Shown: one piece after another, positions 30,803 through 48,351 of the stretch
Position numbering within the stretch: the stretch's first letter is position 1
How the letters are laid out: every line of letters starts with the position of its first letter
NCBI GenBank assembly: GCA_040388455.1
Contig: JAZKBX010000038.1
Coordinates: 80 to 64,079 of the forward strand
Source of the DNA: Bacteroidota bacterium
GTDB lineage: Bacteria; Bacteroidota; Bacteroidia; 2-12-FULL-35-15
DNA: 64,000 nucleotides
Reading direction: 5' to 3'
Made by a program: the position numbers and the translations under genes
The notes under the pieces: generated by a model
The model's database searches: none
What the model saw: the letters and a program-made list of their open reading frames with translations, nothing else
What the model was told of the DNA's origin: nothing

Positions 30803-33800
30803 ATGAAAATAATAAACAATCAGGATAAACTTCTTTTTGATGAGGTAAGCTCTAACATCGCTCCAGATTCTGAAGTGTTTATTGCTGTTGAATACGCCAG
30901 CGTATTATCACTTTATGAGTTAATTGCGAAATTTTCAAAAGCAAAATCAATTCAAATTTTAGTTGATAATAAATGTGCTGAAAATGATTTGCGCTTTACC
31001 TATGATGACGCAGAATCAAAGGCATACTTTGATTTAAAAGCAAAGTATAAAGCTGAACAGGTAAGTGAATTATTAAGCACCAAATGCCAGATTAGAGAAG
31101 GAAAAGTGGGGGGACAAAAATTTATTTTAATAAAAAACAAAAATAAAAACATCTGTTACTCAATTGTTCCCAATGATTTAAACCTGGTAACTCTTGGATT
31201 AATAAAATCAAACAATACCATTTACCTGAATGAATTTAGTGATGATGAAAACCAATATCTGAATATCTTTCAGAGTGTTTGGAGTAAAAGCAACAAGGAA
31301 ATTACACAACAAATAATAAATCTTGTTGACAAAGCTCATATTCTAAATTCCCCTGAACTGCTCTACAAGTTTACTTTGAACCACATCTTTCAAAACAAAA
31401 TCATAAACGAAATTTCGGAACAACGTTTGCGCAAAACTGGTTTTAAGGACACTATTGTTTGGGGAATGCTCTACAATTTCCAACAGGATGCGGTTCTGGG
31501 GGCTATAGATAAAATTGAAACATATGGTGGTTGTATAATAGCTGATTCGGTTGGTCTCGGAAAGACATTTGAGGCGTTAGCAATTATGAAGTATTATCAA
31601 TTGCGTAATGACCGCATTCTTGTTCTATGTCCCAAAAAATTACGTGACAATTGGGCTATTTATGGTCAAAATGATGTTCGGAATATTCTTTCGAAAGACC
31701 GTATGAATTTCGATGTGCTCAATCATACTGATTTAACCCGTGAAAGAGGATTTTCTGGTGATATTAATTTGGAAACAGTAAATTGGGGGAACTATGACTT
31801 AATTGTAATTGATGAGTCACATAATTTCCGGAATAATGACCCTCGCAAGGAAACCATCACTCGCTACCAACGCTTGATGAATGATATTATTCAATCTGGT
31901 GTTAAAACAAAAGTATTGATGTTATCAGCTACTCCAGTTAACACAAGAATGAACGATATAAAAAATCAAATTGCTTTTATCACCGAACAAAACGATAAAG
32001 CCTTAAAGCAATATGGGATTTCGAGTATTGAACAAACGTTGCGTAAGGCACAACAAAAGTTTAATCATTGGCTACGGACTAACACCAATGATAATACAAG
32101 CAGAGATACCCTGGTAAACAATTTAAGTGGTGACTATTTTAAATTACTTGATTTACTTACCATTGCCCGTTCAAGAAAACACATTGAGAAATATTATGAT
32201 GTGAGTGATATTGGGAAATTCCCTGTGCGATTAAAACCCATAAGTAAACACTCGGACTTTGATACAGCAGGCTCTTTCCCCGCAATGGACAAAGTAAACA
32301 ATGAGCTGAATGCCTTGAATTTGAAATTCTACTCTCCGCTCTCCTATGTGCGTGATGATAAAAAAGGGAGCTATGAAGAAAAGTATGACACTTTAACATC
32401 TAAAGGAATTTTCAAGCAATCGAATCGGGAAGAAAGTTTAATTCACTTGATGCGGGTGAATCTCCTTAAACGACTTGAAAGTTCTATTCATTCTTTCCGA
32501 TTAACGCTTGAATCTTTGTTGGCGCAAATTGATGATTTACTTTCTAAAGTTGAAAATGCCCAGAGTACAGAATTCTTTAACAGCGACCTGGATATAACCT
32601 CAGTAGATTTTGATGATGACAACCTGGAAGATTTATTGGTTGGTGGGAAGGTAAAAGTATTGCTCCAGGATATAGATTTGATAAAGTGCAAAGAAGATTT
32701 GTTGGATGATAAAAGGCGATTAGAGAATATTCATTCTCAAACACTGGTAGTTGATGCATCAAGGGATGCGAAGTTAAAGGATTTAAAGGAATTGATTTTA
32801 TACAAAATTCAAAACCCATTAAATAAGGATAATAAAAAAGTGGTTGTGTTTTCTGCTTTTGCCGACACAGTAAAATATCTCTATTCGCAGTTAAGCCCTT
32901 GGTTGTATGAGCTGAAATTATATTCTGCACAAGTAACTGGTGGTGATACAAACAAGACTAACATGCCTAACTGTAAGACAGGATTGAGTTCTATTTTAAT
33001 AAACTTTTCCCCTCTTTCTAAAAAAAGAAATGCGGTTTATCCTGATGAAAAAAATCAAATTGATATTTTGTTTTGTACAGATTGTATTTCAGAAGGTCAG
33101 AACTTACAGGATTGTGATTACCTTGTAAATTACGATATACACTGGAATCCAGTTCGTATTATTCAACGCTTTGGACGTATTGACCGAATAGGTTCAGTAA
33201 ATGAAAAAATTCAATTGGTTAACTTTTTCCCTAACCTGGACCTTGACAGCTATATTGATTTGATAGGCCGTGTAAAAGGACGTATGCAAATTCTGGATGT
33301 TTCGGCTACTGGCGACGATAACATCATTGATGAAACCGCAAGTCAGAATCAGGATTTGGATTACAGAAAAAAACAATTGAAACAACTTCAAAATCAAATA
33401 CTTGATTTAGAAGATATTGAAGGTGGTATTTCCATTACAGATTTGACTTTCAATGATTTTAAAATTGATGCAGACCGATTAACAATTGATGAAAAAGAAC
33501 TTTTTGATTTAACACCGAAGGGCATATTTTCTATCACCCCAAATAATTTGAAAGACGGACAACAAGGTGTCATTTTTTGTTTAAAAGAGTTACAAGTCGC
33601 AGAAGAGGATATTTATGCAAATAATGCTATTTACCCTTACGCACTTTGCTATGTAAACGAAAAAGGTGAAGTGTTTATTCCAAGTAATAACCCAAAGCGT
33701 TGCCTTGATTATTTTAAAAAGCTTTCCTTAGGAAAAACGGAAGTTACAAGTAATCTTATTGCTGAGTTTAATAGACAAACTAAAAGTGGCAAGAACATGG

Positions 33801-33958
33801 ACGCTTATGTTTCACTTTTAGATAGTGCAATGAAAAACATCAAAGGTGCTGATGAAGAACTGGGTTTGGACTCACTTGCAACCCCAGGAGGAACAGCAAT
33901 TACTAAGAAAGATATTAATGCTCCTTTTGAAATTGTATCGTTTTTAATTGTTAAATAA
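30803..33958 (+). CDS. SNF2-family helicase with N-terminal degenerate PLD-like region
   Basis: 1051 aa. Motifs ADSVGLGKTFEA, LIVIDESHNFRN, LSATP and helicase-C CISEGQNLQD...WNPVRIIQRFGRIDRIGS. Confidence 0.85.
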   Translation: MKIINNQDKLLFDEVSSNIAPDSEVFIAVEYASVLSLYELIAKFSKAKSIQILVDNKCAENDLRFTYDDAESKAYFDLKAKYKAEQVSELLSTKCQIREGKVGGQKFILIKNKNKNICYSIVPNDLNLVTLGLIKSNNTIYLNEFSDDENQYLNIFQSVWSKSNKEITQQIINLVDKAHILNSPELLYKFTLNHIFQNKIINEISEQRLRKTGFKDTIVWGMLYNFQQDAVLGAIDKIETYGGCIIADSVGLGKTFEALAIMKYYQLRNDRILVLCPKKLRDNWAIYGQNDVRNILSKDRMNFDVLNHTDLTRERGFSGDINLETVNWGNYDLIVIDESHNFRNNDPRKETITRYQRLMNDIIQSGVKTKVLMLSATPVNTRMNDIKNQIAFITEQNDKALKQYGISSIEQTLRKAQQKFNHWLRTNTNDNTSRDTLVNNLSGDYFKLLDLLTIARSRKHIEKYYDVSDIGKFPVRLKPISKHSDFDTAGSFPAMDKVNNELNALNLKFYSPLSYVRDDKKGSYEEKYDTLTSKGIFKQSNREESLIHLMRVNLLKRLESSIHSFRLTLESLLAQIDDLLSKVENAQSTEFFNSDLDITSVDFDDDNLEDLLVGGKVKVLLQDIDLIKCKEDLLDDKRRLENIHSQTLVVDASRDAKLKDLKELILYKIQNPLNKDNKKVVVFSAFADTVKYLYSQLSPWLYELKLYSAQVTGGDTNKTNMPNCKTGLSSILINFSPLSKKRNAVYPDEKNQIDILFCTDCISEGQNLQDCDYLVNYDIHWNPVRIIQRFGRIDRIGSVNEKIQLVNFFPNLDLDSYIDLIGRVKGRMQILDVSATGDDNIIDETASQNQDLDYRKKQLKQLQNQILDLEDIEGGISITDLTFNDFKIDADRLTIDEKELFDLTPKGIFSITPNNLKDGQQGVIFCLKELQVAEEDIYANNAIYPYALCYVNEKGEVFIPSNNPKRCLDYFKKLSLGKTEVTSNLIAEFNRQTKSGKNMDAYVSLLDSAMKNIKGADEELGLDSLATPGGTAITKKDINAPFEIVSFLIVK

Positions 33959-33961
33959 AGG

Positions 33962-34732
33962 GTGGAGAAATTAAATCAAATATTGCAATTGCCTGAAAGA
34001 TGCCTGGTGAGTAAAAAAATTACCAAGACTTTTTTTAAGCGTAATTTTGATTTAACACTTTCTGAAAAGAAACTACTGGAGGACTCATCTGCAATTATAA
34101 AAATTGATTGGCTGTCTTCATTAAAACCTAACCAGGTTAATATTGAAGGTTATACTGATAGCCAAATAATTTTTGAAGAAATTCAGGTAATAAGTGTTTT
34201 AACCAATGAAAACGATTTCGAAAAAAACAAACAGAAAATTATTGACCTGGTTCAGAAATTCATCCCTTATCATATTTTGCTTTGTGTGTATAATGCTAAT
34301 GAGTTTGTGTTAAACACCTGCAATAAGAGGATAAGCCTTAATGATTATAACAAACGTACTATCGAAAAAAGTTTTATTACTGAAACAATTTCAATAATTG
34401 AACCTACAGATAAACAACAGGCATTTTTAACAAGTTTGGCATTTGAGAATTTGGATAAGCACAATTTAAAATCACTATACGATTCATACTCACAATGCAT
34501 AACGGCTCTTCAAACAGCAAAATTAACGGGTGAATTTATCAGGCGACCAATTGAACAAAGTAAACAGGATGTAGGAATTCTTGATAGAATTAATAAATTA
34601 GAGAGCGAAATACTATTGCTCCAGAATCAGGCAAACAAGGAAACGCAATTAAATACGCAGGTAAAAATAAACGCTGAGGTACAGTTTCGTAGAAAAGAAA
34701 TTGAAGGTTTAAAACATAAACTCATTAACTAA
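33962..34732 (+). CDS. DUF4391-like protein
   Basis: 256 aa with a GTG start 3 nt after the SNF2 stop. The pattern ...KKITKTFF...IIKIDWL...FEEIQVISV...KFIPYHILLCVY resembles DUF4391, a family usually found beside SNF2 and methylase genes. Confidence 0.55.
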   Translation: MEKLNQILQLPERCLVSKKITKTFFKRNFDLTLSEKKLLEDSSAIIKIDWLSSLKPNQVNIEGYTDSQIIFEEIQVISVLTNENDFEKNKQKIIDLVQKFIPYHILLCVYNANEFVLNTCNKRISLNDYNKRTIEKSFITETISIIEPTDKQQAFLTSLAFENLDKHNLKSLYDSYSQCITALQTAKLTGEFIRRPIEQSKQDVGILDRINKLESEILLLQNQANKETQLNTQVKINAEVQFRRKEIEGLKHKLIN

Positions 34733-34739
34733 ACACAAA

Positions 34740-36485
34740 ATGAATATAAGCAAAGTACATTTGCAGAACTTACTAAATACAGGAACCAATCAATATGTGA
34801 TTCCTTTTTTTCAACGCCCTTATGTTTGGAAAAAAGAAGATTGTGAAAGCTTGCTAGAAGATATTAACGAAACAGCAGAAAGGAATAAGGGCAATATTAT
34901 TAAAGAGCACTTTATTGGCACAATTATTACCAAATTTAAAGATGATAGTACTCAGATGAAAGCTGAATTTCACTTAGTTGATGGGCAGCAACGAATGACA
35001 ACTTTTTCTTTAGTATTAAAAGCATTAGCTAATTCCGTTGATTTAAGCCAACCGAAAGCAAATTTTCTTGTTGATAGTATAAATAGTTCTTTATCCTATA
35101 AGGATTCTTATGGAGATGAGCATTTCAGAATTGTTCATAATCGAATTGATAAGGAATATTTTTTGAAAGTGATGGGGTCAAATAATGAAACAAAATTTGA
35201 GGAAGCTGAAGGGCTGAATAAAATTATTGACACCTACAAATTTTTTAAAAATAATTTCATAGGTCTTTCTAACGAGGAGATATTGTTTATAAATCAAACT
35301 GTTTTAAACCGATTTCCAGCTATAAGTATGGTTTTAGAAAAACAGGATGATGAGCAAGAAATTTTTGATACAATCAATTCATTAGGGGTTAAATTAACAA
35401 CCTCCGAATTGTTAAAGAATTTTATTTTCAGTGATACAGCAACGCAAAAATTGTATACTTCTTTGTGGGAAGACGTTTTTGAGTCAGATGAAGAGACTAT
35501 CAAATTCTGGAACCTAAAGAAAACAGCAGGAAGGGTATATCGTGAAAATATTGATGTATTGTTATACTGTTATTTACTAATTGAACGTGAAAAAGATGTT
35601 TCCTTAGAACACTTGTTTAGAGATTACAAAGAATGGCTTGTTGGCAAAACCAGTGCTGATAAGAAACTATTTTTAGAAAACTTAAAAGTGTCAGCAGAAA
35701 TATTTTCAAATTTTCCATCTGGTACTGAATTAAACAATTTAAAATTTGATGAAATTGAAAAACGCTTTTTTCATGTTATTGAAAACCTAAACATAACTAC
35801 CATATATCCTTTGGTGCTATATTTATACAAGGAATTAACCAATTCTGTTGATAGACTTAAATGTTTAGAGTACTTAGAAAGTTATTTAGTAAGAAGAAAC
35901 ATATGTAAACTAACGACTAAAAATTACAATAATCTTTTTACGTCAATAGTAAAAAGCATCAAAGCATCAAAAGCTCCAACCATATTTGATGCATTAAAAG
36001 ATACAATACATGGCTATACTGAAGACACGAACCGTTTTCCAACAGATGATGATGTTAAAAATGGTTTTGCTCATTCAACACTTAGTAACCAACATGCGAA
36101 AGAAACGTTATTTATAATTGCGTTGTTTCAGATAAAAACGGTTCTTAATGATGTTACATTGCTTAGCTCCAATAGCTTTTCGGTAGAACATATGATGCCT
36201 AAAGCATGGGTGCAAAACTGGAATGATTCAAAGTTAACTTCAGAAGCAAAATTGCTTAGAAATCATACATTATTAACTTTAGGTAACTTAACAATAATAA
36301 CCAAAAACCTGAATAGCAAATTAAGAAATAGCTCTTGGAAAAACAAGCGTTCTATACTTCAGCAATTTTCTTCATTACCATTAACAACGCAATACACCAT
36401 TTTGGATAATTGGAACGAAGCAACTATTGAAAGTAGAGCATCTACATTACACAATTTGGCAATAAACATTTGGAAAAAATATTAA
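34740..36485 (+). CDS. GmrSD-like DUF262 + DUF1524 protein (type IV restriction-like)
   Basis: 581 aa. DUF262 motifs IPFFQRPYVWKKED and LVDGQQRMTTF. C-terminal His-Me/DUF1524-like FSVEHMMPKAW...LGNLTIITKNLNSKLRN. Confidence 0.8.
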   Translation: MNISKVHLQNLLNTGTNQYVIPFFQRPYVWKKEDCESLLEDINETAERNKGNIIKEHFIGTIITKFKDDSTQMKAEFHLVDGQQRMTTFSLVLKALANSVDLSQPKANFLVDSINSSLSYKDSYGDEHFRIVHNRIDKEYFLKVMGSNNETKFEEAEGLNKIIDTYKFFKNNFIGLSNEEILFINQTVLNRFPAISMVLEKQDDEQEIFDTINSLGVKLTTSELLKNFIFSDTATQKLYTSLWEDVFESDEETIKFWNLKKTAGRVYRENIDVLLYCYLLIEREKDVSLEHLFRDYKEWLVGKTSADKKLFLENLKVSAEIFSNFPSGTELNNLKFDEIEKRFFHVIENLNITTIYPLVLYLYKELTNSVDRLKCLEYLESYLVRRNICKLTTKNYNNLFTSIVKSIKASKAPTIFDALKDTIHGYTEDTNRFPTDDDVKNGFAHSTLSNQHAKETLFIIALFQIKTVLNDVTLLSSNSFSVEHMMPKAWVQNWNDSKLTSEAKLLRNHTLLTLGNLTIITKNLNSKLRNSSWKNKRSILQQFSSLPLTTQYTILDNWNEATIESRASTLHNLAINIWKKY

Positions 36486-36486
36486 T

Positions 36487-38580
36487 ATGGAAAAAATTAC
36501 GAAAGACCATCCACTAAGCAAGAGCGAAGATATTCTGCAAACGAATATTGAAACACTTAAAAAGTTATTCCCAACTATTGTAAAAGAGGGGAAGATTGAC
36601 ATGAAAGAGTTGGAAGCTTTGCTGAGTGATGAAATAGAAACTGCTGATGAATATTACCGTTTTAATTGGGCAGGAAAAAGTGATGCAAGGCGAGAATCAA
36701 ATAAGCCTAGCACAGCTACTTTACGCCCTTGCAAAGAGGAAAGTAAAAATTGGGATAACACGGAAAATGTTTTTATCGAAGGGGATAACTTAGAAGTTTT
36801 AAAACTATTACAAAAGAGTTATTCAAACAAAATTAAATTAATTTATATAGACCCCCCTTACAATAAGGGAAAAGACTTTGTTTATCAGGATAATTACTCT
36901 GATAATTTAAAAAACTATCTCCTAAAGTCTGGCCAAATTAACGAGGAAGGCAATAAAATTAGTACTAATACTGAAAGTGATGGGAGGTTTCATAGCAATT
37001 GGCTAAATATGATTTATCCTCGGTTGAAACTAGCTCGAAATTTGCTTAAAGAGGATGGAGCAATTTTTATTAGCATTGACAATAAAGAAGTTTTTAATCT
37101 TAAGAAGGTATGTGATGAGATATTTGGAGAAGAAAATTTTGTAGAATGTATTGCTTGGAATAAAAGGATTCCCAAAAACGATAAAGGAATTGGAAATATT
37201 CATGAATACATTTTGATTTATGCTCAAAAATTTTCAAGTGATTATGAATTTACAATGAGGAAGGAAGGGCTTGAGGATATTGAGGAATTGGTACAGAAGC
37301 TAAAAAAAAGCAAAACTCCAATTCCTGAAGCAGAAAAGGAAATTAAAATATTGTATAAAAAAAAGGGCTATGATAGAGGAATTACTCTTTACAATAGCTT
37401 AAGTGACGAATATCGCATTTGGGGGAAAATAAATATGAGTTGGCCAAATTCTGACACCTTCGGTCCAAGATATATTGTTTCTCACCCCATTTCAAAGAAG
37501 CCGATGAAAATTCCCCAAAGAGGATGGAGATGGAAAGAAGACACGTTTAAAGAGGCTGCTAAAATTGTAAATGGTACATATAATGAAATTATTGAATTGC
37601 ACGATGGCACTTTTTTATGCGGTCGAATTTGGTTTGATAAAGATGAAAATACACAGCCTAGTTCAATAAATTATTTGGACGAAGTAGATACATTTCTTTT
37701 AAGGTCAATATTGTCCAGTAAGAGTGATGGGGGGATTGAAGTGGAAGAATTGTTTGAAGGGAAAAGTTTTTTTTCTTACCCGAAACCAACCACCTTGATT
37801 CAATTGCTAATTAATTCAATGAAAATGGAGTCTAATGATATTGTTTTAGATTTTTTTGCTGGGTCAGGAACAACTGCAAATGCAGTGATGCAATTAAATT
37901 CGGAAGATGGTCTAAATCGGAAATATATTTGCGTTCAATTTCCAGAACCAACTGATGAAAAAAGCGAAGCACATAAGGCTGGTTTCCTTAATATTTCTGA
38001 AATTACAAAAGAACGTATAAGGAGGTCTGGAAATAAGATTATTTCCTCATTACAGACTAGGCTGAATGAAGATAAAAAGAAAACCGCTTCTCAACTTCAA
38101 TTTGACACCAATAGTCTTTCAAAAAATAATTTAACAACTGAAAGTCTTCTCGAAAAGCTAGATACAGGGTTTAAATCATTTAAATTAGACACAAGTAACA
38201 TCAATGCTTGGGACGGCAGCTTAATCAATTTCGAAAAGAATCTATTAAACTCTGAAACAAATATAAAAATTGACAGAACAGAAGATGACGTTCTATTTGA
38301 AGTTTTGCTCAAATATGGATTAAATCTGACGGTTCCTATTGAGGAAAAAACAATTGCAGGTTGTAAGGTATACAGTGTGGGTTTAGGAGCCTTGTTTGTT
38401 TGCCTTGCAGATAATATTACAACACAGGTAGCTGAGGACATTGGGAAATGGAAAGAAAAATTAAATCCAACCAGTTGTCGTGTATTGTTTAAAGACAATG
38501 GTTTTAAAGATGACGTTGCTAAAACTAATAGCGTTCAGATTCTAAAACGTTTTGCAATTCAAGAAATCAATAGCCTTTAA
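36487..38580 (+). CDS. mod: Type III-like N6-adenine DNA methyltransferase (Mod, beta-class order)
   Basis: 697 aa. Motif IV IYIDPPYNKG precedes motif I DFFAGSGTTANA. Confidence 0.85.
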   Translation: MEKITKDHPLSKSEDILQTNIETLKKLFPTIVKEGKIDMKELEALLSDEIETADEYYRFNWAGKSDARRESNKPSTATLRPCKEESKNWDNTENVFIEGDNLEVLKLLQKSYSNKIKLIYIDPPYNKGKDFVYQDNYSDNLKNYLLKSGQINEEGNKISTNTESDGRFHSNWLNMIYPRLKLARNLLKEDGAIFISIDNKEVFNLKKVCDEIFGEENFVECIAWNKRIPKNDKGIGNIHEYILIYAQKFSSDYEFTMRKEGLEDIEELVQKLKKSKTPIPEAEKEIKILYKKKGYDRGITLYNSLSDEYRIWGKINMSWPNSDTFGPRYIVSHPISKKPMKIPQRGWRWKEDTFKEAAKIVNGTYNEIIELHDGTFLCGRIWFDKDENTQPSSINYLDEVDTFLLRSILSSKSDGGIEVEELFEGKSFFSYPKPTTLIQLLINSMKMESNDIVLDFFAGSGTTANAVMQLNSEDGLNRKYICVQFPEPTDEKSEAHKAGFLNISEITKERIRRSGNKIISSLQTRLNEDKKKTASQLQFDTNSLSKNNLTTESLLEKLDTGFKSFKLDTSNINAWDGSLINFEKNLLNSETNIKIDRTEDDVLFEVLLKYGLNLTVPIEEKTIAGCKVYSVGLGALFVCLADNITTQVAEDIGKWKEKLNPTSCRVLFKDNGFKDDVAKTNSVQILKRFAIQEINSL

Positions 38581-38590
38581 TTTTGTAAGT

Positions 38591-41500
38591 ATGGAAATTA
38601 AATTTGAAAAAGGCCTGGATTATCAAAGGGATGCTATCAATAGTGTTGTAGATATATTCGGAGGTCAAGAGATATGTAAAAGTAATTTTACGGTTTACTC
38701 GCCTGAGTATCTTGCTAAGCAAACCAACCTGGTAATGAACGATATTGGTTTTGCCAATAAGCTTCAACTAACTGAAGACCAAATTCTAGAAAATGTTCAA
38801 AAGATTCAACTTCATAATGGTTTGAAGCCTTCTATTTCTGACGAAATTGATAAGAGTCATTACGATTTCAGTATTGAAATGGAAACGGGTACAGGAAAAA
38901 CGTATGTGTATTTACGCTCCATCATGGAGATGAATCGGAAGTATGGGTTTACAAAATTCATCATTGTAGTTCCTTCTATTCCAATTAAAGAAGGAGTTTA
39001 TAAAACTTTAGAAATCACAAAAAAACATTTTCAGGAAAATTATGATGGGATAGATTATAGTTTTTTTATTTACGATAGTTCTCGCTTAAATGAAATCCGA
39101 GATTTTGCAATCAATGATAAATTGCAAATTATGGTAATCAATATTCAGGCATTCAATAAAGACCTTGAAGCTGGAACAAAAAAAGCCTCTCGTATTTTAT
39201 TAGATTATAATGATAAGTTAGGATATACGCCTATTTCATTAATACAAAATACAAGGCCAGTTGTAATTGTTGATGAACCACAAAGTACCATCAGCACGGA
39301 TTTAGCAATGCGGTCAGTTAAAAACCTGAACCCACTTACATTATTACGTTATTCTGCTACTCATAAAGACAAAGTGAATCTTATGTACAAGTTGGATGCA
39401 GTTGATGCTTACAACAAACAATTGGTAAAGCAAATTGAAGTAGCCTCAGTTAAGGTAGAAAACTCAGCAGTAAGCTCAGCATACATCCGTTTGTTATCTG
39501 TAAAAAACAAAAATGGTATTTCAGCAAAAATAGAATTGGATGTAAAAGATAAGGAGGGAAAAGCAAAAAGAATTACAAAAGAGGTAACGCAAAATAAGGA
39601 TTTGCTTCAGCTTTCAAAGCTCCCACAGTATGCTGACTACTTCATTAAGAATATATACTCAGGCGAAGGAAATGAGTACATCGAATTAGGAGATGATACC
39701 ATTTTGAAAATTGGAGAAGCAATTGGCTCAGTTGATGAGAGTGCTATTAAGCGGATGCAGATTAGCAAAACAATTGAAGAACACCTTGACAAAGAACTTA
39801 TATTAAATCCAAAAGGATTAAAGGTGTTGAGTTTGTTTTTCATTGATGCAGTAAAGCATTATCGTGTTTATGATGATGAAGGACATGCAACGAATGGTGA
39901 TTATGCAAAAATGTTTGAAGAGGAATACAAAAAACATATTAAGAAGCCGAAATACAAAACATTGTTTGAAGGAATAAAAGATATAAATACTGAAGCTTCA
40001 GATGTCCACAACGGTTATTTTTCAATGGATAAAAAAACCAAGAAGAGTAACTCAAAAGAAAAATTTGAAGTCTTTAAAGACACGAGTGGTTCTGTGGGAG
40101 CAGATGAAGACACCTACAGTTTGATAATGCGAGATAAAGAGAAATTATTAAGCTTTGAATCTAAACTTCGTTTCATCTTTTCGCATTCAGCATTAAAGGA
40201 AGGATGGGATAATCCTAATGTATTTCAGATATGTACATTGAAAGAGGCTGGTAATTCAGAAACACGCAGAAGGCAGGAAATTGGTCGAGGCTTACGTTTG
40301 GCAGTGAATCAACAAGGAGAAAGAGTTTATGGTTTTGAAACCAACAAACTCACAGTAATGGCAAGCGAATCGTATGAAGACTTTGTTGATGGATTACAAA
40401 AAGAAATTGAAAAAGAAACAGGGATTACTTTTGGTCAGTTACAATCACACGGGTTTAACAACGTGGTGGTTCAAATGATAAACAATGAACCTGTTTTCCT
40501 AGGTCAGGAGAAATCAGAAGAACTTTATAATTACTTACTGCTTAAACAATATATTGATGCAAAGGGTAAGGTACAAAACCTTTTAAGAGATGATTTAAAA
40601 GCTGGCACTGTTGATTTAGGACAGGAGTTTGAAGCACATGTTGCCAGCCAGATAATTGAAACCCTTAAACAAACAGCAGGTAAACTTGAAATTAAGCGTA
40701 ATGAAGAAAAGAAAACAGTTAAAGTAAAAGAAGCAGTTTTAGATGACCCTGAATTTAAAATGCTCTGGGACCGCATTAAATACAAAACTACCTATTCTGT
40801 TCAGTTCGACTCTCAAAAGCTCATAGAAGCTTGTATAAAGCATATCAATGACCGTTTAATTGTAAGCAGTGGCAAACTTATTTACAACAAAGTTGACCTA
40901 CAACTTACCAAGGGAGGTTTAATAGCCTCAGAACCAAAAAATGAGTACGGAAGAGTAAACCAGGAAGTAAGCGTATTACCTGACATTGTAAGCTACCTTC
41001 AAAATGAAACTCAATTAACCAGAAAGTCGATTGTAAAAATTCTTCAGGGGTGTACAAACATAAATTATTTCAAAATAAATCCGCAAAAATTTATTGAAGG
41101 ATGTATTGATATTATAAACGAGCAAATGCGTTTGCACATCGTGGATGGAATTGTTTACAGGAAAATCGGAGACAACATTTTTCACAGCCAGGAACTTTTC
41201 AAAACTGAAGAGCTTACTGGTTACTTGAAATCAAATATGATGGCAAGCACCAAATCTCCTTATGAGTATGTAGTTTTCGATAGCGGAATTGAATCTGAAC
41301 TTGCTAAAGAGTTTGAGAAAAACACAAATGTAAAAGTGTATGCGAAGCTACCAAGATGGTTTACAATTGAAACCCCGCTTGGTAATTACAACCCAGATTG
41401 GGCAGTTTTATTTGAACTCGATGGTGAAGAACAATTATTCTTTGTAGTCGAAAGTAAAGGTTCAATGGGCTATGAATTCCTACGACCATCTGAGCAAGGT

Positions 41501-41617
41501 AAAATTGATTGTGGTAAAGCTCACTTTAAAGAGCTTGCCAAAGAAAGTAAGAGTAATGTGAAATTGGTTTACATCAGCACTATGGATGATTTTACTAATA
41601 TTGCGATGGGGGCCTAA
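38591..41617 (+). CDS. res: Type III restriction enzyme Res subunit (DEAD-like helicase + PD-ExK nuclease)
   Basis: Start taken at MEIKFEKGLDYQRDAINSVVDIFGG, a typical Res N-terminus. Motifs ETGTGKT and VIVDEPQS, plus C-terminal YNPDWAVLF...FFVVESKG. Confidence 0.85.
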   Translation: MEIKFEKGLDYQRDAINSVVDIFGGQEICKSNFTVYSPEYLAKQTNLVMNDIGFANKLQLTEDQILENVQKIQLHNGLKPSISDEIDKSHYDFSIEMETGTGKTYVYLRSIMEMNRKYGFTKFIIVVPSIPIKEGVYKTLEITKKHFQENYDGIDYSFFIYDSSRLNEIRDFAINDKLQIMVINIQAFNKDLEAGTKKASRILLDYNDKLGYTPISLIQNTRPVVIVDEPQSTISTDLAMRSVKNLNPLTLLRYSATHKDKVNLMYKLDAVDAYNKQLVKQIEVASVKVENSAVSSAYIRLLSVKNKNGISAKIELDVKDKEGKAKRITKEVTQNKDLLQLSKLPQYADYFIKNIYSGEGNEYIELGDDTILKIGEAIGSVDESAIKRMQISKTIEEHLDKELILNPKGLKVLSLFFIDAVKHYRVYDDEGHATNGDYAKMFEEEYKKHIKKPKYKTLFEGIKDINTEASDVHNGYFSMDKKTKKSNSKEKFEVFKDTSGSVGADEDTYSLIMRDKEKLLSFESKLRFIFSHSALKEGWDNPNVFQICTLKEAGNSETRRRQEIGRGLRLAVNQQGERVYGFETNKLTVMASESYEDFVDGLQKEIEKETGITFGQLQSHGFNNVVVQMINNEPVFLGQEKSEELYNYLLLKQYIDAKGKVQNLLRDDLKAGTVDLGQEFEAHVASQIIETLKQTAGKLEIKRNEEKKTVKVKEAVLDDPEFKMLWDRIKYKTTYSVQFDSQKLIEACIKHINDRLIVSSGKLIYNKVDLQLTKGGLIASEPKNEYGRVNQEVSVLPDIVSYLQNETQLTRKSIVKILQGCTNINYFKINPQKFIEGCIDIINEQMRLHIVDGIVYRKIGDNIFHSQELFKTEELTGYLKSNMMASTKSPYEYVVFDSGIESELAKEFEKNTNVKVYAKLPRWFTIETPLGNYNPDWAVLFELDGEEQLFFVVESKGSMGYEFLRPSEQGKIDCGKAHFKELAKESKSNVKLVYISTMDDFTNIAMGA

Positions 41618-41636: not shown

Positions 41637-42632
41637 ATGAAAAGACTACTACAGATAAATTTCAGGAACGTAATTAATCAAGCGGTGATTGAGGCCTGGA
41701 GAAGAGTTCCGAGTGGCCCACATGAACCAGATTTTATTGCAAGTCTTGTATTATCTGGCACTCCAGGTTTTCACAACGCAATTATTGCCACCTCTGGTAT
41801 CTGGAGCAAAGTTAATACTGTTGGAGTCTTTTGTCACCAGTCGCCAATGGTAAAGTACATGGATGGAGTAACAGAAAGAAGATGTGAGTTAGGCGATGTT
41901 CTTTGGTGTCATTTTCATACCAATAAAGAGGGCGATACTTTTCGAAATGCTATTCTTTTTCAGTCTAAAATGTCTGCCACTTTGACTCCTGCAATCCACT
42001 ACAATGATACACAACTTAAACTGTATCGTGAATGGCCTCAGTACGAATATTGTCGTTCAGGATCCTTGAATGGTCAAGTCAGAAATCTATTACCTAAACA
42101 GCCTCATGCTGGTGCGCAATATATGTTTATTGATAATAGCCCCATAACAAATCCGAGTTTGGGTGTGCAAAATTTAAATCCGTATACTACATTTCCAATT
42201 GGAACAACAACCATTTCTCCACTACTTCTCGGTAATACTCCTTTGGAATTAGAATTAGTCCGATTCTTGTTTTTGGGCAGTGGACGGTCTTTTGATTCTT
42301 ACCGCAACAGAAATGCATCTGATGAATGGACCAAAATTATTTGGGACTTGTTAAGAAATGGAATGAGCCGTGCATTTAATCGCAGAAGAGCGGGATTCAA
42401 TAATTCACCAAGAATAAGTCGTTACAAAAGCAGTATGGATGGCATGTTAACTTTTACTGGTTCATCTGATGACATAAGCTCTGGACTTGATGGTGAGTTC
42501 TACAATGAATATAAAGATTTATTTTCTTCGGATGATGGAGGGAACAAAGAAAACAATTATACACCAGAAGATAAAGAAGGTGGAGGGGCTCCTTCGATAA
42601 TTATTTTCAGAACAAATGAAAGTAAGGGATAA
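41637..42632 (+). CDS. Hypothetical protein, possible degenerate PD-(D/E)xK-like core, disordered C-terminus
   Basis: 331 aa, starting 19 nt after the res stop on the same strand. No family recognised. Contains the segment CELGDVLWCHFH...NAILFQSKM. The tail is rich in G/S/D/N. Confidence 0.6.
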   Translation: MKRLLQINFRNVINQAVIEAWRRVPSGPHEPDFIASLVLSGTPGFHNAIIATSGIWSKVNTVGVFCHQSPMVKYMDGVTERRCELGDVLWCHFHTNKEGDTFRNAILFQSKMSATLTPAIHYNDTQLKLYREWPQYEYCRSGSLNGQVRNLLPKQPHAGAQYMFIDNSPITNPSLGVQNLNPYTTFPIGTTTISPLLLGNTPLELELVRFLFLGSGRSFDSYRNRNASDEWTKIIWDLLRNGMSRAFNRRRAGFNNSPRISRYKSSMDGMLTFTGSSDDISSGLDGEFYNEYKDLFSSDDGGNKENNYTPEDKEGGGAPSIIIFRTNESKG

Positions 42633-42752: not shown

Positions 42753-44384
42753 ATGCCATTAAGAAAAACATCTATATATAAATACTTGGAACCTGATTAC
42801 AGATACAAAGAAAAATATTGGCCAATTCTCACTGACTTTGTTAAAAAAAAATATGGTGATTCAGAAATTACATCACTAGTTGCGGTTCAGGAAACTCTAA
42901 AAGAGTGCTTTTCGATACTTTGTAAAGAATTTATTGTAGTACTTAAAAAAGAAAAAAGAGCTTCATTTTTCATATTTGTTCAAGACCTTCATGAGGACTC
43001 TATTGACATGTGGCGAGCACAACTTAACGGAGATAAATTTCCAATAAACCAAGAAGACTTCGCGGCTACAAGAAGAATTATGAAATATATTCTTGAACAG
43101 GGGTGTGGTTTGGATTTGATCGGCCATGATTTCTTTTTTAAAGAAATAAATGAACAGATTGAACCTTACACTAAACATCTCGAAGAGCTTGTTTATATAG
43201 GAACTTGGGCGTTTACGATAAGTGAGTATATTGCTCGTAGCCAAATTTGCAATCATTCCGTAAGTTTGAAAGTAGAAAACAATGAGTTTGTAATTAATGT
43301 GAAGCCCCCCTTCAATTCTCTTTTTAGCTTCATATTTGCAGACAACCAACGACACAATAAAGCAGTAGTAGTATCAAATTCAATTATTGAACTGAAGAAA
43401 ATACTGAACGATGATTTGAAAACTAATTATGATTATTTGTGTGGAGCTGTTTTTGGTCAGCTTCAAGATAAAAAATTCAGATTTTCAATATTTAAACTCG
43501 ATGAGCTGATTAAAGAATTAATAAAAAAGCATGGATACTCAAAAGATGTAGTGGAAATTTTTTATTCTGGATTGATGGTTAATAAAAACAATGTACTTAG
43601 TATTGAGGATTGCATATTGAAAACCCAAGATAGCAGGCGGTATATGTACAGACCGATATTAGAATATACTATTGACGAAAAAACCTTTTGGATAATCGGA
43701 GCAAATAAATGGTCCGAAAGTTTGACTGCACTGACAACTAATTGTATCCCTTTTGGTCAATTTCCTGATGAATGGAAACAATTGATTCCAATATGTGATT
43801 TCTGTAATAGAATAATGAACACCCATGACGTAGTGCTTGAAGAACCAGCTATCGAAATAATTAAGAATGTTAATTTTAAATTTGACAGAAATATAAAGTC
43901 GTTAAAAAAGACCAATAATCAAGGTGTTAGCATAATAAAAAAAAACGTTGGTGAAATTGACCTCGTTTTTATAGATGAAAAAAACAAGTTGATTTATGTT
44001 GCCGAATGTAAGCACAATAAATCCAGATTTGAATACAATAACTGGAAAAGGGACATCTCAAATTTCAGGTCTAAGTATGAAAGCCAATTGAGCAATAAAT
44101 TTAACTGGATTTCCAATAATAAACTTCCCTTGCTCGAACATTTTGAAATTTTATACGCCTGCAAAATTGAAAGTCAGGAGAATTACAATGTGATTCCTCT
44201 TTTTATTATTAATGCTCCAACACTATATATGTATGACAGCGAATATCTGGTCGTAACCTTACACGATTTAGAATTACTTTTAAGTGGCAAACATGTTACC
44301 CATGAATTTAATGGGGAAATAAATGGGAAAAAAGTAAATATTAAAAAACCATATTTACAAAATGCAGAAAAGCTTTTTATTTAA
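42753..44384 (+). CDS. Hypothetical protein with C-terminal PD-(D/E)xK (NERD-like) nuclease motif
   Basis: 543 aa. The roughly 340 N-terminal residues match nothing I recognise. The C-terminal part carries GEIDLVFIDEKNKLIYVAECKHNK (D...ExK). Confidence 0.6.
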   Translation: MPLRKTSIYKYLEPDYRYKEKYWPILTDFVKKKYGDSEITSLVAVQETLKECFSILCKEFIVVLKKEKRASFFIFVQDLHEDSIDMWRAQLNGDKFPINQEDFAATRRIMKYILEQGCGLDLIGHDFFFKEINEQIEPYTKHLEELVYIGTWAFTISEYIARSQICNHSVSLKVENNEFVINVKPPFNSLFSFIFADNQRHNKAVVVSNSIIELKKILNDDLKTNYDYLCGAVFGQLQDKKFRFSIFKLDELIKELIKKHGYSKDVVEIFYSGLMVNKNNVLSIEDCILKTQDSRRYMYRPILEYTIDEKTFWIIGANKWSESLTALTTNCIPFGQFPDEWKQLIPICDFCNRIMNTHDVVLEEPAIEIIKNVNFKFDRNIKSLKKTNNQGVSIIKKNVGEIDLVFIDEKNKLIYVAECKHNKSRFEYNNWKRDISNFRSKYESQLSNKFNWISNNKLPLLEHFEILYACKIESQENYNVIPLFIINAPTLYMYDSEYLVVTLHDLELLLSGKHVTHEFNGEINGKKVNIKKPYLQNAEKLFI

Positions 44385-44422: not shown

Positions 44423-45334
44423 ATGATAGATTTTATTGGAGACATCCACGGACATGCGGACAAACTTGAAGCCTTACTTATAAAGTTAGGATATACCATA
44501 AAAAACGGAACATATTTTCATCCTGAAAGGAAAGTATTGTTTGTAGGGGATTATATTGACAGAGGGCCCAAGATAAGAGAAACGCTGGATATTGTAAGGA
44601 GAATGGTGGAAAGTGAAAATGCAATTGCCTTAATGGGTAATCATGAATATAATGCTTTATGTTTTCATTTTCAGGAAACTGAAGGAGGGCATTTACGCAA
44701 ACATTTAATTAAAAACATCATCCAGCATTATGAAACATTAAAACAATTTCAAAATAGACAAAAAGAATATGAAGATTATTTAGAATGGTTTAAAACTCTC
44801 CCGTTGTTTTATGAGACAGATAAATTTAGAGCTGTTCATGCTTGTTGGGACAATAACCACATTGATTATTTGCGTCAGCAATTATCAAATGATAAACTTA
44901 CAGATGAATTAATATACCAATCTGTAAAAAAAGGAACACAACTCAACCTCGCAATTGAAGACACTTTAAAAGGCAAAGAAATAACAATGCCGAAAGATCT
45001 TGATTTTACGGATAAAGATGGCACTAAAAGAACTGAAATAAGAATAAAATGGTGGGAGGACCCAGCGCATTCAACCTATAAATCAATAAGTGTTGAACCC
45101 CTGGAAAATTTGCCTGAAAGCCCTGTTGAAATATCCTTATTTAATGATTCTAATTATTACAGCAAAAACAATAAAGCTGTTTTTTTCGGCCACTACTGGC
45201 TTAAAGGAGCCCCGACACTTTACAGAAATAATATTTGCTGTTTAGATTATAGTGTTGCAAAACAAGGGCATTTGGTCGCTTACAGGTTGGATGAAGAAAA
45301 AGACCTTAGCACCAATAAAATGGTCTATGTATAA
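44423..45334 (+). CDS. PPP-family metallophosphoesterase (ApaH/PrpE/lambda-phosphatase-like)
   Basis: 303 aa. Motifs GDIHGH, GDYIDRGP and GNHE. Confidence 0.8.
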   Translation: MIDFIGDIHGHADKLEALLIKLGYTIKNGTYFHPERKVLFVGDYIDRGPKIRETLDIVRRMVESENAIALMGNHEYNALCFHFQETEGGHLRKHLIKNIIQHYETLKQFQNRQKEYEDYLEWFKTLPLFYETDKFRAVHACWDNNHIDYLRQQLSNDKLTDELIYQSVKKGTQLNLAIEDTLKGKEITMPKDLDFTDKDGTKRTEIRIKWWEDPAHSTYKSISVEPLENLPESPVEISLFNDSNYYSKNNKAVFFGHYWLKGAPTLYRNNICCLDYSVAKQGHLVAYRLDEEKDLSTNKMVYV

Positions 45335-45440: not shown

Positions 45441-45635
45441 TTACACTTTGTCATATTCGTCAAGGTATTCTCTTAAGTCCCGTCCTTGCGTGTGAATGCA
45501 CTCACAGAATTTTACTCCAGCTACTTCGTTGTCGGTGCCTGTAAACTGTTTCTCACAATCGGAAAGCGAGTTTCGTGGCATTATTTCGTGACCGTAGATA
45601 AAGTAGAGGATGAAAACTCCAACTAATATTATCAC
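45441..45635 (-). CDS. Small hypothetical membrane-anchored protein
   Basis: 64 aa with one N-terminal hydrophobic helix. ATGA overlap with the upstream small ORF. Confidence 0.3.
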   Translation of the reverse strand: MIILVGVFILYFIYGHEIMPRNSLSDCEKQFTGTDNEVAGVKFCECIHTQGRDLREYLDEYDKV

Positions 45636-45910
45636 TCCCCAAAAAACAGTGTCGGGAATTTGTTGCTGTACTTTTGGGGTTTCTCTAATATGAGAGGGTC
45701 AGAAACCTTTTTGAATGGTAAAATGAATTTTATTCTGTCGTAGTTCCAAAAGAGAACGCACAGGTTTGCCAATACCATCAAAGGTGCGGTCATATATGAG
45801 CCTTCAAAACGAACTGCAAACGAAAGAATGCAGATGTTCAAAATAATTGGGAGGTACAGCATGGCTCCAATGTCACTGTCCTGGGAATTAGCAACAGAAT
45901 GGCCGCTCAA
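45632..45910 (-). CDS. Small hypothetical membrane protein
   Basis: 92 aa with two hydrophobic segments. The start is uncertain (internal Met at MLYLPII). Confidence 0.3.
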   Translation of the reverse strand: MSGHSVANSQDSDIGAMLYLPIILNICILSFAVRFEGSYMTAPLMVLANLCVLFWNYDRIKFILPFKKVSDPLILEKPQKYSNKFPTLFFGE

Positions 45911-45961
45911 TGAATGTGTAGTAATAACCCGTGTGTTGTAGTGTCTCTAAATAATGTCCCA

Positions 45962-46307
45962 TTAGATGATTGACCGATAAGTCACTAGCGAACCGCTCGC
46001 CTCATTATGCTCTTCATCTTTTGCACCATACACTAATGTTACTATTCCCTTCTTCATCTTTCCCTTCAAAAACGACACCTGCTCTTCGTTCTCTTTAAGT
46101 TCTTGGTGATAACATTTCTTGAACTCTTGCCATTTATTGGGGTCGTGCCCAAACCCTTCTCGAAGCATTGTACTGGGCGCAATATCCTTTAACCTTAAAT
46201 CAACACTAGCCTTTTCTTTTGTCAGACCTCTTGGCCCAGAGCCTGTCCACGAGAATACGCATGCCATCTCCTTTATCCGGCTTTTCATACACTCTTTTGA
46301 TTTTCAT
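45962..46307 (-). pseudogene. DUF488 (YeaO-like) gene interrupted by a 1-nt frameshift
   Basis: From the ATG at 46307 the minus strand reads MKIKRVYEKPDKGDGMRILVDRLW, then goes out of frame. The track ORF frame continues ...GPRGLTKEKASVDLRLKDIAPS...VTLVYGAKDEEHN. Deleting one G in ctctgggcc (about 46233-46238) restores the canonical RILVDRLWPRGL. Confidence 0.75.
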
Positions 46308-47903: not shown

Positions 47904-48273
47904 ATAGTATGATTTTCAAATTGTATTCATTATTAATTTTGCTCCTTAAAATATTCCAAATAACCATTGCAATATTTTCTACTGTAGGGTTAAGGGTCTT
48001 AAATTCGGTTACATCAAGATTAAGATTTTTATGGTCAAACTTCCTTAAAACATACTTTTTTACAATCGTGCTTAATAGTTTGGTGTCGTAAACGTATCCT
48101 GTTTCCGAATCAATCTCTCCTGTTATTTGCAGTATAAGTACGTAGTTATGTCCATGAAAATTCGGGTTGTTACATTTACCGAAAATTGCTTTGTTCTTCT
48201 CGTCTGTCCATTTAGTATTATGTAACCTATGGGCTGCATTAAAATGTTCTTTTCTATATATGGTTGCTCTCAT
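47863..48273 (-). CDS. 6-pyruvoyl-tetrahydropterin synthase / QueD-family protein
   Basis: 136 aa. Motifs FNAAHRL and CNNPNFHGHNY. It overlaps the annotated folE start by 41 nt. Confidence 0.8.
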   Translation of the reverse strand: MRATIYRKEHFNAAHRLHNTKWTDEKNKAIFGKCNNPNFHGHNYVLILQITGEIDSETGYVYDTKLLSTIVKKYVLRKFDHKNLNLDVTEFKTLNPTVENIAMVIWNILRSKINNEYNLKIILYETERNYVEYPHA

Positions 48274-48287
48274 AGATTACAATAAAA

Positions 48288-48334: not shown

Positions 48335-48351
48335 AGTTTTCAATTAACCCT

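Follow-up and report, generated by a model that had tools for sequence, protein, structure and literature searches.

A widespread, undescribed protein family with predicted nuclease features, represented downstream of a Type III restriction operon in a Bacteroidota genome

Several described defence systems contain nucleases that act alone or with dedicated partners. The anticodon nucleases PrrC and RloC carry an ATPase domain, and GmrSD combines a DUF262 with an HNH-type DUF1524 domain. HamA of Hachiman acts together with the helicase HamB, and Cap4 of CBASS with a cyclase and a SAVED sensor. Rpn proteins (PDDEXK_2/YhgA-like) are toxic nucleases that act in defence and have an antitoxin encoded inside the C-terminal part of their own gene (PMC10327210). 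The canonical PD-(D/E)XK nuclease core is defined by an Asp ahead of one strand and (D/E)xK on the next, and the 'EPD-XXK' variant of EcoO109I provides a precedent for a Glu placed ahead of the Asp (PMC3424549). Here we describe gene X, a 331-aa ORF that follows a Type III res gene in a 64-kb window (the whole stretch of DNA that was analysed). With a probability of roughly 55%, we consider its product to be a stand-alone, single-gene defence nuclease of an undescribed family, encoded on a self-contained cassette, rather than a component of the Type III enzyme.

Gene X and its family

Gene X starts 19 nt after the res stop at 41617 on the same strand, as an earlier note on this DNA had it, and follows a run of five genes (30803..41617) that are encoded on one strand with gaps of at most 19 nt. 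These were annotated with Pfam and PADLOC, and X was taken from the ORF list and its translation:

30803-33958, + strand: SNF2 helicase
33962-34732, + strand: DUF4391 protein
34740-36485, + strand: GmrSD
36487-38580, + strand: Type III Mod
38552/38582-41617, + strand: Type III Res
41637..42632, + strand: gene X (ATG at 41637, stop codon at 42630-42632, 331 aa)

No terminator-like site was detected between res and X, which together with the 19-nt gap suggests that X is probably co-transcribed with the upstream operon; the promoter scan was made with a model other than one for Bacteroidota. The X protein is 100% identical to MES2394864.1, a 'hypothetical protein' of a Bacteroidota MAG. Because dN/dS is 0.14 relative to the allele at a second res-associated locus (L059), we regard X as a functional coding gene under purifying selection. 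Its G+C content of 0.386 exceeds the mean of the genes in the window (0.341, sd 0.027, 37 genes; z = 1.6, rank 3/37), so that the earlier impression of a G+C-richer gene was right overall but is no sign of foreign origin when G+C is computed by codon position. GC3 (0.292) matches that of the neighbouring genes (mean 0.288), which removes the G+C argument for a foreign origin, and the surplus is confined to codon position 2 (0.431) and therefore reflects amino-acid composition, not foreign codon usage.

X had no match among the models of Pfam, NCBIfam, PHROGs or PADLOC (PADLOC 2.0), single scans of 105 diverse family members with Pfam and PADLOC assigned no family, and PDB profile searches with the X family matched nothing. 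Twenty close relatives were found, and an exhaustive profile search recovered approximately 1,360 representative clusters (50% identity clusters, many phyla) at E ≤ 1e-3, 413 of them at E ≤ 1e-30. The family is thus undescribed in databases and widespread. The initial view of X as an unrecognised protein in a defence setting holds, and its failure to fit any family stands for these databases, but X is not isolated. Literature on DUF4391, on accessory genes of Kiwa and on extra genes in Type III/SNF2 operons yielded no description of it. Ten longer family members, inspected for clues to fusion partners, have extensions devoid of any Pfam domain. No match to the family was present in the phage set searched, and the plasmid set gave a single weak match, over half of the length, in a Paraburkholderia replicon of 2.5 Mb. 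A pattern scan, with patterns designed from the 20-sequence alignment (the 105-sequence one being too diverse), identified at least 41 X loci among 185,579 species genomes, distributed sparsely and patchily over many phyla.

Predicted core and C-terminal tail

Two AlphaFold2 models of X were confident (pTM 0.85 and 0.87), and trimming to the ordered core improved the model (pLDDT 88). The regions and motifs considered below are as follows, with counts referring to the 105 diverse family members:

41724..42053, + strand: predicted nuclease-like core, residues 30-139 (AlphaFold2, pLDDT mostly >85 in two models)
41724..41732, + strand: E30-P31-D32 at the N-terminus of the core helix (E30 105/105, P31 97/105, D32 100/105)
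41832..41846, + strand: C66-H67-Q68-x-P70 in the loop after the first core strand (C 97, H 103, Q 90 and P 104 of 105)
41886..41897, + strand: E84-L-G86-D87 with a putative metal-binding acidic pair (E84 104/105, G86 104/105, D87 105/105)
41961..41969, + strand: Q109-S-K111 on strand 101-112, the putative (D/E)xK equivalent in the form QxK (Q109 and K111 105/105)
42012..42026, + strand: Q126-L-K-L-Y130 (QxxxY) in helix 125-132 (Q126 105/105, L129 104/105, Y130 103/105)
42054..42368, + strand: second mixed alpha/beta region, residues 140-244 (confidently modelled; G159-A160, G216-R217 and W231...D237 conserved)
42369..42422, + strand: conserved basic segment RAFNRRRAGFNNSPRISR, residues 245-262, net charge +6 (R249 91/105, R259 97/105)
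42423..42593, + strand: acidic G/S/D/N-rich linker, residues 263-319, net charge -9 (51% G/S/D/N, poorly conserved, largely low-confidence)
42594..42629, + strand: conserved C-terminal beta-strand, residues 320-331 (strand 320-328; a 10-residue pLDDT block averages 86)

In the models, the core comprises helix 30-51, strands 56-65, 71-76, 79-84, 88-95 and 101-112, helix 125-132 and strand 136-139. This order is compatible with an alpha-beta-beta-beta-alpha-beta core that carries an inserted hairpin; Foldseek gave no significant match for this fold. D87 immediately precedes strand 88-95 in both models and, if strands 88-95 and 101-112 pair as a hairpin, residue 87 would lie opposite residue 109. 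Residues E30, D87, Q109, K111, Q126 and G216 are invariant across the 105 members, and H67, E84, G86 and Y130 are each found in 103-104 members. The E-x-G-D...Q-x-K spacing at about residues 84-111, which had been singled out from the sequence of X, is thereby confirmed as part of the most conserved portion of the family; position 110, Ser in X, is Ala in 96/105 members. X carries the PD-(D/E)XK motif in a variant form, with QxK and with E84 upstream of D87. The placement of D87 and Q109-x-K111 corresponds to PD-(D/E)XK geometry, and this fold is suggested by the motifs and the order of secondary-structure elements; neither profile nor structure searches connected the family with a known nuclease. 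Two Foldseek searches of the PDB and one of BFVD returned nothing at E ≤ 0.001 for X, with no gain from the trimmed core. The best PDB matches were carbonic anhydrases and enolases, none of them significant, and noise-level entries included MspI, MUS81, UL24 and PD-(D/E)XK proteins, of which several UL24 and PD-(D/E)XK entries were in BFVD, all sub-threshold. A Pfam scan of the 105 members gave no match to the PDDEXK_1 or Cas4 families.

The invariant Gln at the canonical acid position could indicate a different chemistry or a role limited to binding. The catalytic residues of TnsA are E63, D114 and Q130-x-K132; a literature search on them as a candidate QxK precedent found nothing, and TnsA is not drawn on as a precedent here. 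The helical Q126-x-x-x-Y130, 15 residues after K111, is followed by W133-P134 (W133 kept in 103/105) and shows a possible resemblance to a motif of the RecB family, whose signature we take to be D, (D/E)xK and QxxxY. In our proposal, the N-terminal two-thirds of X is most likely a metal-dependent nuclease of a divergent PD-(D/E)XK type. Metal would be bound by E30, E84 and D87 and perhaps also by H67, K111 would serve as the catalytic lysine, and Q109 would hold the position usually taken by Asp/Glu, with E84 as the putative 'migrated' acid.

Residues 140-244 lie inside the stretch of codons 91-270, in which divergence between the alleles of the window and L059 is greatest. Across the family, the basic segment has a net positive charge in 98% of members, and the linker spans 37-76 aa and carries a net negative charge in 95%. 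The pLDDT of X drops below 50 at residues 248-267 and 298-314, and within the linker a short strand (270-274) and a helix (286-296) are modelled. The terminal strand has the consensus S-h-h-h-h-E-T-x-E, and 91/105 members have S320; at position 325, Glu is found in 88/105, but the X of the window has Arg. The earlier description of the last ~90 aa as disordered therefore holds only in part: it fits the two stretches of low pLDDT and the G/S/D/N-rich linker, whereas residues 245-262 make up a conserved basic segment and the terminal strand is conserved and modelled with good confidence. Basic segment, acidic linker and terminal strand may fold back as one tail onto the core and hold the enzyme in an inactive state until it is triggered, although this arrangement is speculative.

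Genomic contexts and allele exchange

The upstream operon architecture with X recurs at three loci (L006, L011 and P0003), and in L059 res is directly followed by X. The Res-X junction was found only in the window and these four loci, all from close Bacteroidota relatives, and approximately 40 other X loci have no Type III genes adjoining X. The slot taken by GmrSD in the operon of the window is a variable one. Three loci (P0005, P0007 and P0008) encode X homologues that are 58-65% identical and have no Type III genes nearby. The view of X as a functional adjunct of Res is not upheld by these five Res-X operons and the similarly close homologues in unrelated contexts. The earlier note had itself named homologues in unrelated contexts as evidence against its reading; such contexts were found as far as dependence on Res is concerned, but do not count against a general role in defence.

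All-versus-all clustering of 429 neighbours of 45 X loci revealed no family in more than five loci and none that is common across clades. KwaA-KwaB-X is present at four Clostridia loci (L022, L031, L034 and L047, gaps of 8-12 nt), which belong to three Lachnospiraceae and one Monoglobus MAG, and is absent from other loci. At L016, X lies between hsdS and hsdR (hsdM-hsdS-X-hsdR). Other contexts are MmeI-helicase-T5orf172-X-TIR-TIR-8xMP-SIR2, RM-X-AbiJ/AAA_21 and an integrase-bearing element in which X is followed by a Type I RM system, and PADLOC detected further defence genes among the neighbours. At five loci (L001, L015, L038, L046 and L060) the neighbours are housekeeping genes only. Resolvase and integrase genes are also found next to X, and the copies in L047 and L053 are likely pseudogenised. 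Structured RNAs or tRNAs that would mark an island border were not detected in the window.

Fixed partnerships of X were considered and rejected. Obligate linkage to mod/res, as for a Type III subunit, is contradicted by the ~40 loci with no Type III genes beside X, and a role as third Kiwa component by the restriction of KwaA-KwaB to four loci. A Type II toxin-antitoxin module was dismissed, as there was no recurrent small partner among the 429 neighbours of the 45 loci. A two-gene module with the downstream 543-aa ORF was likewise discarded: the 543-aa gene that follows the X homologue of L054 is unrelated to it (BLASTP E = 0.57), and the 543-aa and 303-aa genes of the window have no homologue in any of 57 X loci.

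Between the window and L059, res is 99.0% identical in DNA (dS 0.044) and X 81.2% (dS 0.81), with the drop in identity beginning at the res stop codon. This difference in dS within one contig pair therefore indicates allelic cassette exchange under purifying selection, i.e., homologous recombination swaps X alleles among strains. In the Type III clade, identity is 53-65% for X proteins as compared to 83-89% for Res, and X is evolving 4-5 times faster than the adjoining Res. A search for boundary repeats or att-like sites around the cassette gave only short repeats at chance level, and the upstream flanks of X are unrelated between contexts.

Proposed role, alternatives and known systems

We propose that the stand-alone nuclease X would behave as an independent cassette that settles in defence islands, as a rule behind the last gene of an operon belonging to another system, whose transcription it would use; its host operon in the window is SNF2-DUF4391-GmrSD-Mod-Res. 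An extension of this proposal, which is less likely than not, is that X founds a new family of single-protein immune sensor-effectors, in which a nuclease core too divergent for present sequence or structure searches would be locked by the tail and its strand, the rapidly exchanged region of codons ~90-270 would recognise a phage cue, and attachment to the 3' ends of RM and Kiwa operons would give these systems a second line of defence that evolves independently.

A narrower version of the stand-alone nuclease, rather than a contrary explanation, is a Type IV-like, modification-dependent endonuclease that would use an unrecognised DNA-reading region (residues 140-262), cut modified phage DNA and reside beside RM genes as in immigration-control regions. 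It would account for the D...QxK form as in E. coli Mrr, for the frequent proximity of X to RM systems of Types I, IIG/L and III, for the second domain and conserved basic segment, and for the lack of a consistently paired methyltransferase, which is expected of a Type IV enzyme. We nevertheless consider it rather unlikely, given that no relationship to Mrr_cat was detectable (hhalign 0.16%; no Pfam match), that neither Pfam nor Foldseek revealed an SRA, EVE/YTH or winged-helix reader in X, and that the acidic linker and putative docking strand suggest regulated, not constitutive, activity.

A function outside of defence seems improbable. As a housekeeping or mobile-element DNA-processing enzyme (repair, recombination, element maintenance), or as a non-catalytic DNA-binding protein, X might simply gather in variable islands, in agreement with the five loci that lack defence neighbours, the nearby resolvase/integrase genes, the invariant Gln in place of the canonical acid and the absence of a fold match to any nuclease. 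However, the sparse and patchy distribution (at least 41 loci among the species genomes scanned), the close association on one strand with Kiwa, Type I, Type III, MmeI and AAA_15/21 genes, the fast evolution relative to Res with exchanged alleles, and the likely pseudogenised copies are all features that defence genes typically show and that set X apart from housekeeping enzymes. Least credible is a dedicated accessory of the Type III (SNF2-DUF4391-Mod-Res) system, e.g., a nuclease recruited by the translocating complex and working only with Res: the short same-strand distance to res with no terminator match in between and the junction kept in five distinct operons argue for it, but equally similar homologues (58-65%) occur without Type III genes, less similar members are preceded by Kiwa, Type I or housekeeping genes, and X and Res differ in their histories within the same contig pair (dS 0.81 vs 0.044).

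Should X prove to be an active defence nuclease, it would bring in a widespread family of ~1,360 clusters that is missed by Pfam, NCBIfam, PADLOC 2.0 and PHROGs. Its location at the 3' ends of several unrelated defence operons suggests that operon ends may act as cargo sites, and the exchange of its alleles while the host operon is still 99% identical offers a testable case of single-gene modules diversifying in defence islands. For annotation, a gene seemingly 'appended' to Res should not be assumed to belong to the Type III enzyme. Nucleases that stand alone in defence islands are well known, and the result is useful more than surprising.

Among known systems, Mrr_cat (PF04471) and X share a conserved helix Glu, G-D before a strand and h-h-h-Q-A-K on the following strand. 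E. coli Mrr, a real restriction nuclease with a D...QxK site as in X, reads ...GDGGIDGV...VYVQAKRW and the X-family consensus ELGD...LLLQAK, and both proteins are found adjoining RM systems. X differs by an additional hairpin, inserted after the first core strand and ahead of the Asp, by another C-terminal half and by the absence of the N-terminal winged-helix domain of Mrr. Membership in Mrr_cat was rejected, as none of the 105 members hit PF04471 at E ≤ 0.1 and hhalign left the motifs unaligned at a probability of 0.16% (E = 0.37), using a shallow Mrr_cat alignment (at least 72% identity) of limited sensitivity. EcoO109I resembles X in having an acid shortly ahead of the catalytic Asp (in X, E84-x-G-D87) and a non-acidic residue at the Glu position of the third core strand (PMC3424549). 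The likeness is one of motif logic only, with no sequence or structural match, and the Type II enzyme EcoO109I has a cognate methyltransferase, while no methyltransferase is consistently linked to X.

HamA (DUF1837) and Cap4 are PD-(D/E)XK-type effector nucleases of defence islands, as X is predicted to be, but X has no conserved partner comparable to theirs. A HamA2 match in 1/105 family members (PADLOC, E = 0.0045) is at chance level, because ~0.5 such matches are expected over 105 scans, and neither HamA nor Cap4 was among the 50 matches listed per PDB Foldseek search of X. Pfam and PADLOC gave no Cap4 or SAVED match in the X family, and the families reported for the neighbours included no cyclase and no recurrent helicase. 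The suggested resemblance to Cap4/DUF1837-type modules was thus not borne out, and membership in either family was rejected on profile, fold and neighbour searches.

As an autonomous gene placed within a restriction operon or behind its last gene, X is similar to PrrC and RloC in Type I loci and to GmrSD and BrxU in BREX and Type III loci; these families are unrelated to X and differ from it in predicted chemistry. Rpn nucleases are comparable in that X is a predicted stand-alone PD-(D/E)XK-type protein of ~300 aa with a distinct C-terminal part that possibly controls toxicity. No homology between them and X was detected (no Pfam match), and X differs from them in that its extreme C-terminus is conserved and its centre is the most variable part.

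The X gene and its operon

The X gene occupies 331 codons on the forward strand, from an ATG at 41637 to a stop codon at 42630-42632, and follows the end of Type III res at 41617 after a spacer of 19 nt, exactly as the earlier note described it; a simple scan of this spacer revealed no terminator-like site. According to Pfam and PADLOC matches, the genes 5' of X form one densely packed array on the same strand, and two further genes follow 3' of it:

30803-33958, +, SNF2-type helicase (PADLOC 'HKD+Snf2')
33962-34732, +, DUF4391 (Pfam/PADLOC)
34740-36485, +, GmrSD (Pfam/PADLOC)
36487-38580, +, Type III Mod (Pfam/PADLOC)
38552 or 38582 to 41617, +, Type III Res (Pfam/PADLOC)
41637-42632, +, X (ORF list and translation)
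42753-44384, +, unassignable 543-aa ORF, 120-nt gap 3' of X
44423-45334, +, 303-aa calcineurin-like metallophosphatase (PrpE/Pnkp-like), 38 nt after the 543-aa ORF

With its listed start, a TTG at 38552, the Res ORF shares 29 nt with mod; read from the ATG at 38582, Res has 1,011 aa and a 1-nt gap after mod, which fits the Res lengths in the related loci L006 (1,010 aa) and L011 (1,006 aa). The SNF2-DUF4391-Mod-Res operon has another cargo position, the slot between DUF4391 and Mod, which is filled by GmrSD in the window and L011, empty in L006 and occupied by an HTH and HipA kinase pair in the related P0003 locus. For the 543-aa ORF, Pfam and NCBIfam gave no match and PADLOC none that was significant, the sole hint being a weak PHROG HNH match (E = 0.0035). 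Neither this ORF nor the metallophosphatase had homologues in any other locus compared, and the two may constitute a separate module at the island end.

The G+C content of X is 0.386, compared with a mean of 0.341 (sd 0.027) for the 37 window genes (z = 1.6, rank 3/37), in keeping with the visual impression reported previously. The excess sits in codon position 2 (0.431) while GC3 is close to the mean (0.292 versus 0.288); it is an amino-acid effect and no sign of recent foreign origin. Against a mean G+C of 0.34 for the whole window, peaks of 0.41-0.43 at 45500-46250 and 48250-49000 coincide with small minus-strand ORFs; no tRNA or Rfam family was found under them.

Family and genomic surroundings

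No model in Pfam, PADLOC, NCBIfam or PHROGs matched X itself, consistent with the earlier failure to place it in a family, and PDB sequence-profile searches were empty. X is not an orphan. A word-indexed search of 5.8 billion proteins yielded 20 relatives, annotated as 'hypothetical protein' wherever named, including the identical MES2394864.1 from a Bacteroidota MAG. At E <= 1e-3, an exhaustive profile search of 1.84 billion representatives recovered 1,360 clusters, of which 413 passed E <= 1e-30; almost all clusters are 300-350 aa long and align over their full length. When 105 diverse members were scanned one by one, no Pfam family matched consistently, and PADLOC returned just four matches, each in a single member and at chance level; ten longer members had no recognisable additional domain. 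The family was absent from 50,697 phage records, and 72,556 plasmids gave one weak, partial match.

The comparison of genomic context drew on GTDB species genomes as well as metagenome contigs and comprised 45 non-redundant loci, spanning Bacteroidota, Lachnospiraceae and other Clostridia, Proteobacteria, Chlorobi, Lentisphaerota, Deferribacteres and Actinobacteria. All-against-all clustering of their 429 neighbour proteins identified no family common to more than five loci. Only close relatives within Bacteroidota had the res-X junction, namely the window, L059, L006, L011 and the P0003 locus. The arrangement KwaA-KwaB-X, with 8-12 nt between KwaB and X, occurred in four Clostridia loci, three from Lachnospiraceae and one from a Monoglobus MAG (L022, L031, L034 and L047, about 7200-10900 in each), immediately preceded in L022, L031 and L047 by mad2-like and mad3-like genes. 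In the Type I system of an Azonexus MAG (L016, 6599-14213), X stands after hsdS and before hsdR (hsdM-hsdS-X-hsdR), a place where embedded defence genes are classically found. L055-L057 have X immediately 5' of a complete Type I RM system as cargo of one element, which also carries HTH_17, an AAA_25 protein, a VRR_NUC/Hjc-like gene and KilA-N and, in L056, ends in a tyrosine integrase. Further arrangements were MmeI-helicase-T5orf172-X-TIR-TIR-8xMP-SIR2 (L002), an RM-like block followed by X and AbiJ/AAA_21 (L010) and, in single loci, AAA_15/21, FRG, DUF6602 or YhcG upstream of X. Downstream of X, PADLOC recognised, among others, Type I RM, PtuA, Cas6b and several PDC candidate systems. By a rough count, a known defence gene lies no more than three genes from X in 40-50% of loci; only housekeeping neighbours were seen in L001, L015, L038, L046 and L060. 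Homologues do not always follow a helicase or Res, being Res-linked in five operons only and otherwise accompanied by Kiwa, Type I, other or housekeeping genes. In Eubacterium plexicaudatum ASF492 and a Lachnospiraceae MAG (L047, 9965-10776, and L053, 9956-10515), two neighbouring ORFs share the sequence of X, likely representing frameshifted pseudogenes or assembly errors.

Separate histories of X and the operon carrying it

Res proteins of the Type III clade are 83-89% identical to one another and SNF2 proteins 91%, and X only 53-65%. X copies from outside Type III contexts are 65% (P0005) and about 59% (P0007 and P0008) identical, so that X inside the clade is no closer than copies elsewhere. 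The Res fragment of L059 shares 777/779 residues and 99.0% of 2,341 nt with the window; identity falls from the res stop codon onwards, to 81.2% of 996 nt in X. Nei-Gojobori estimates for this pair are dS 0.044 and dN 0.002 for res and dS 0.81, dN 0.114 and dN/dS 0.14 for X, with dS returning to 0-0.16 in X codons 271-331. The 18-fold synonymous excess cannot stem from protein selection; an X allele was imported by homologous recombination, with breakpoints near the res/X junction and near codon 270. Purifying selection still acts on X. A search around X for flanking repeats or conserved boundary sequences found none. X is not a Type III subunit: its contexts vary and its dS departs from that of res. 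The best explanation is that X is an autonomous module of one gene that settles in defence islands. It often stands last in another system's operon, so that in the window it probably shares a transcript with the Type III genes.

Predicted nuclease core and conserved tail

AlphaFold2 models of full-length X (pTM 0.85, mean pLDDT 82) and of residues 26-245 (pTM 0.87, pLDDT 88) were confident, but Foldseek retrieved nothing at E <= 0.001 with the full-length model against PDB and BFVD or the trimmed model against PDB. Sub-threshold matches include several herpesvirus UL24 and 'PD-(D/E)XK' entries (full-length, BFVD) and MspI and MUS81 (trimmed, PDB), which are hints at most because all have E > 0.5 and TM < 0.2. 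Alignment of the 105 sequences revealed six invariant residues (E30, D87, Q109, K111, Q126, G216) and fourteen near-invariant ones (P31, D32, C66, H67, P70, E84, G86, L129, Y130, W133, P134, G159, W231, R259). Conserved elements mapped on the models, and the C-terminal features, are:

E30, start of helix 30-51
C66-H67-Q68-x-P70, after strand 56-65
E84, end of hairpin 71-76 and 79-84
D87, directly preceding strand 88-95
Q109-x-K111, on strand 101-112, next after 88-95
Q126-x-x-x-Y130, in helix 125-132
245-262, conserved basic segment, net charge +6
263-319, poorly conserved, largely low-confidence acidic linker, 51% G/S/D/N, net charge -9
last 12 residues, conserved C-terminal strand, consensus S-h-h-h-h-E-T-x-E

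In canonical PD-(D/E)XK enzymes the second core strand has an Asp at its N-terminus and the third carries (D/E)xK, and in EcoO109I a Glu has migrated to just before the Asp ('EPD-XXK') (PMC3424549). On the predicted structure, D87 and Q109-x-K111 adopt this canonical layout with Gln replacing the acid, and EcoO109I offers a role for E84. Should strands 88-95 and 101-112 pair as a hairpin with turn 96-100, a pairing we infer rather than read from the model output, residue 87 would lie opposite 109. An established restriction nuclease, E. coli Mrr, also has a D...QxK site and reads ...GDGGIDGV...VYVQAKRW in the K-12 genome. Judged by motifs and element order, X is most likely a divergent PD-(D/E)XK nuclease. 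The possible nuclease core noted previously gains invariant residues and a recognisable layout, though no statistically significant fold or profile match, while the accompanying comparison with Cap4/DUF1837 fails: HamA/Cap4 kinship found no support in the PADLOC scan of the 105 members or in either PDB Foldseek search. Membership in Mrr_cat was likewise rejected on a profile-profile comparison with a shallow Mrr_cat alignment (probability 0.16%).

The tail, previously regarded as disordered and G/S/D/N-rich, fits that description in the linker but not in the segments on either side of it. Net charge is positive in 98% of members at 245-262 and negative in 95% across the linker (37-76 aa), and the 10-residue pLDDT block over the terminal strand averages 86. 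Basic patch, acidic tether and terminal strand recur throughout the family even where sequence diverges, a pattern that suggests, speculatively, intramolecular control of a nucleic-acid-binding surface. Residue 325 (42609-42611), the conserved Glu of the strand in 88/105 members, is Arg in the window, and most close relatives also lack Glu here (R, V, K or I).

With this predicted fold, X would most likely act as a regulated metal-dependent nuclease. A narrower and less probable form of this reading, a stand-alone modification-dependent (Type IV-like) nuclease, would accord with the Mrr-like QxK site and with the RM systems near X. A non-defence role is a less likely alternative and fits poorly with the patchy distribution, fast protein evolution, allele exchange and operon linkages of X.

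The putative nuclease X is of a familiar kind: autonomous nucleases of defence islands and additional genes within RM operons are well known. New are a sizeable family without a model in any library searched, a confident predicted structure without a detectable neighbour, the conserved basic/acidic/strand tail, and direct evidence for cassette-like allele replacement within an otherwise identical operon.
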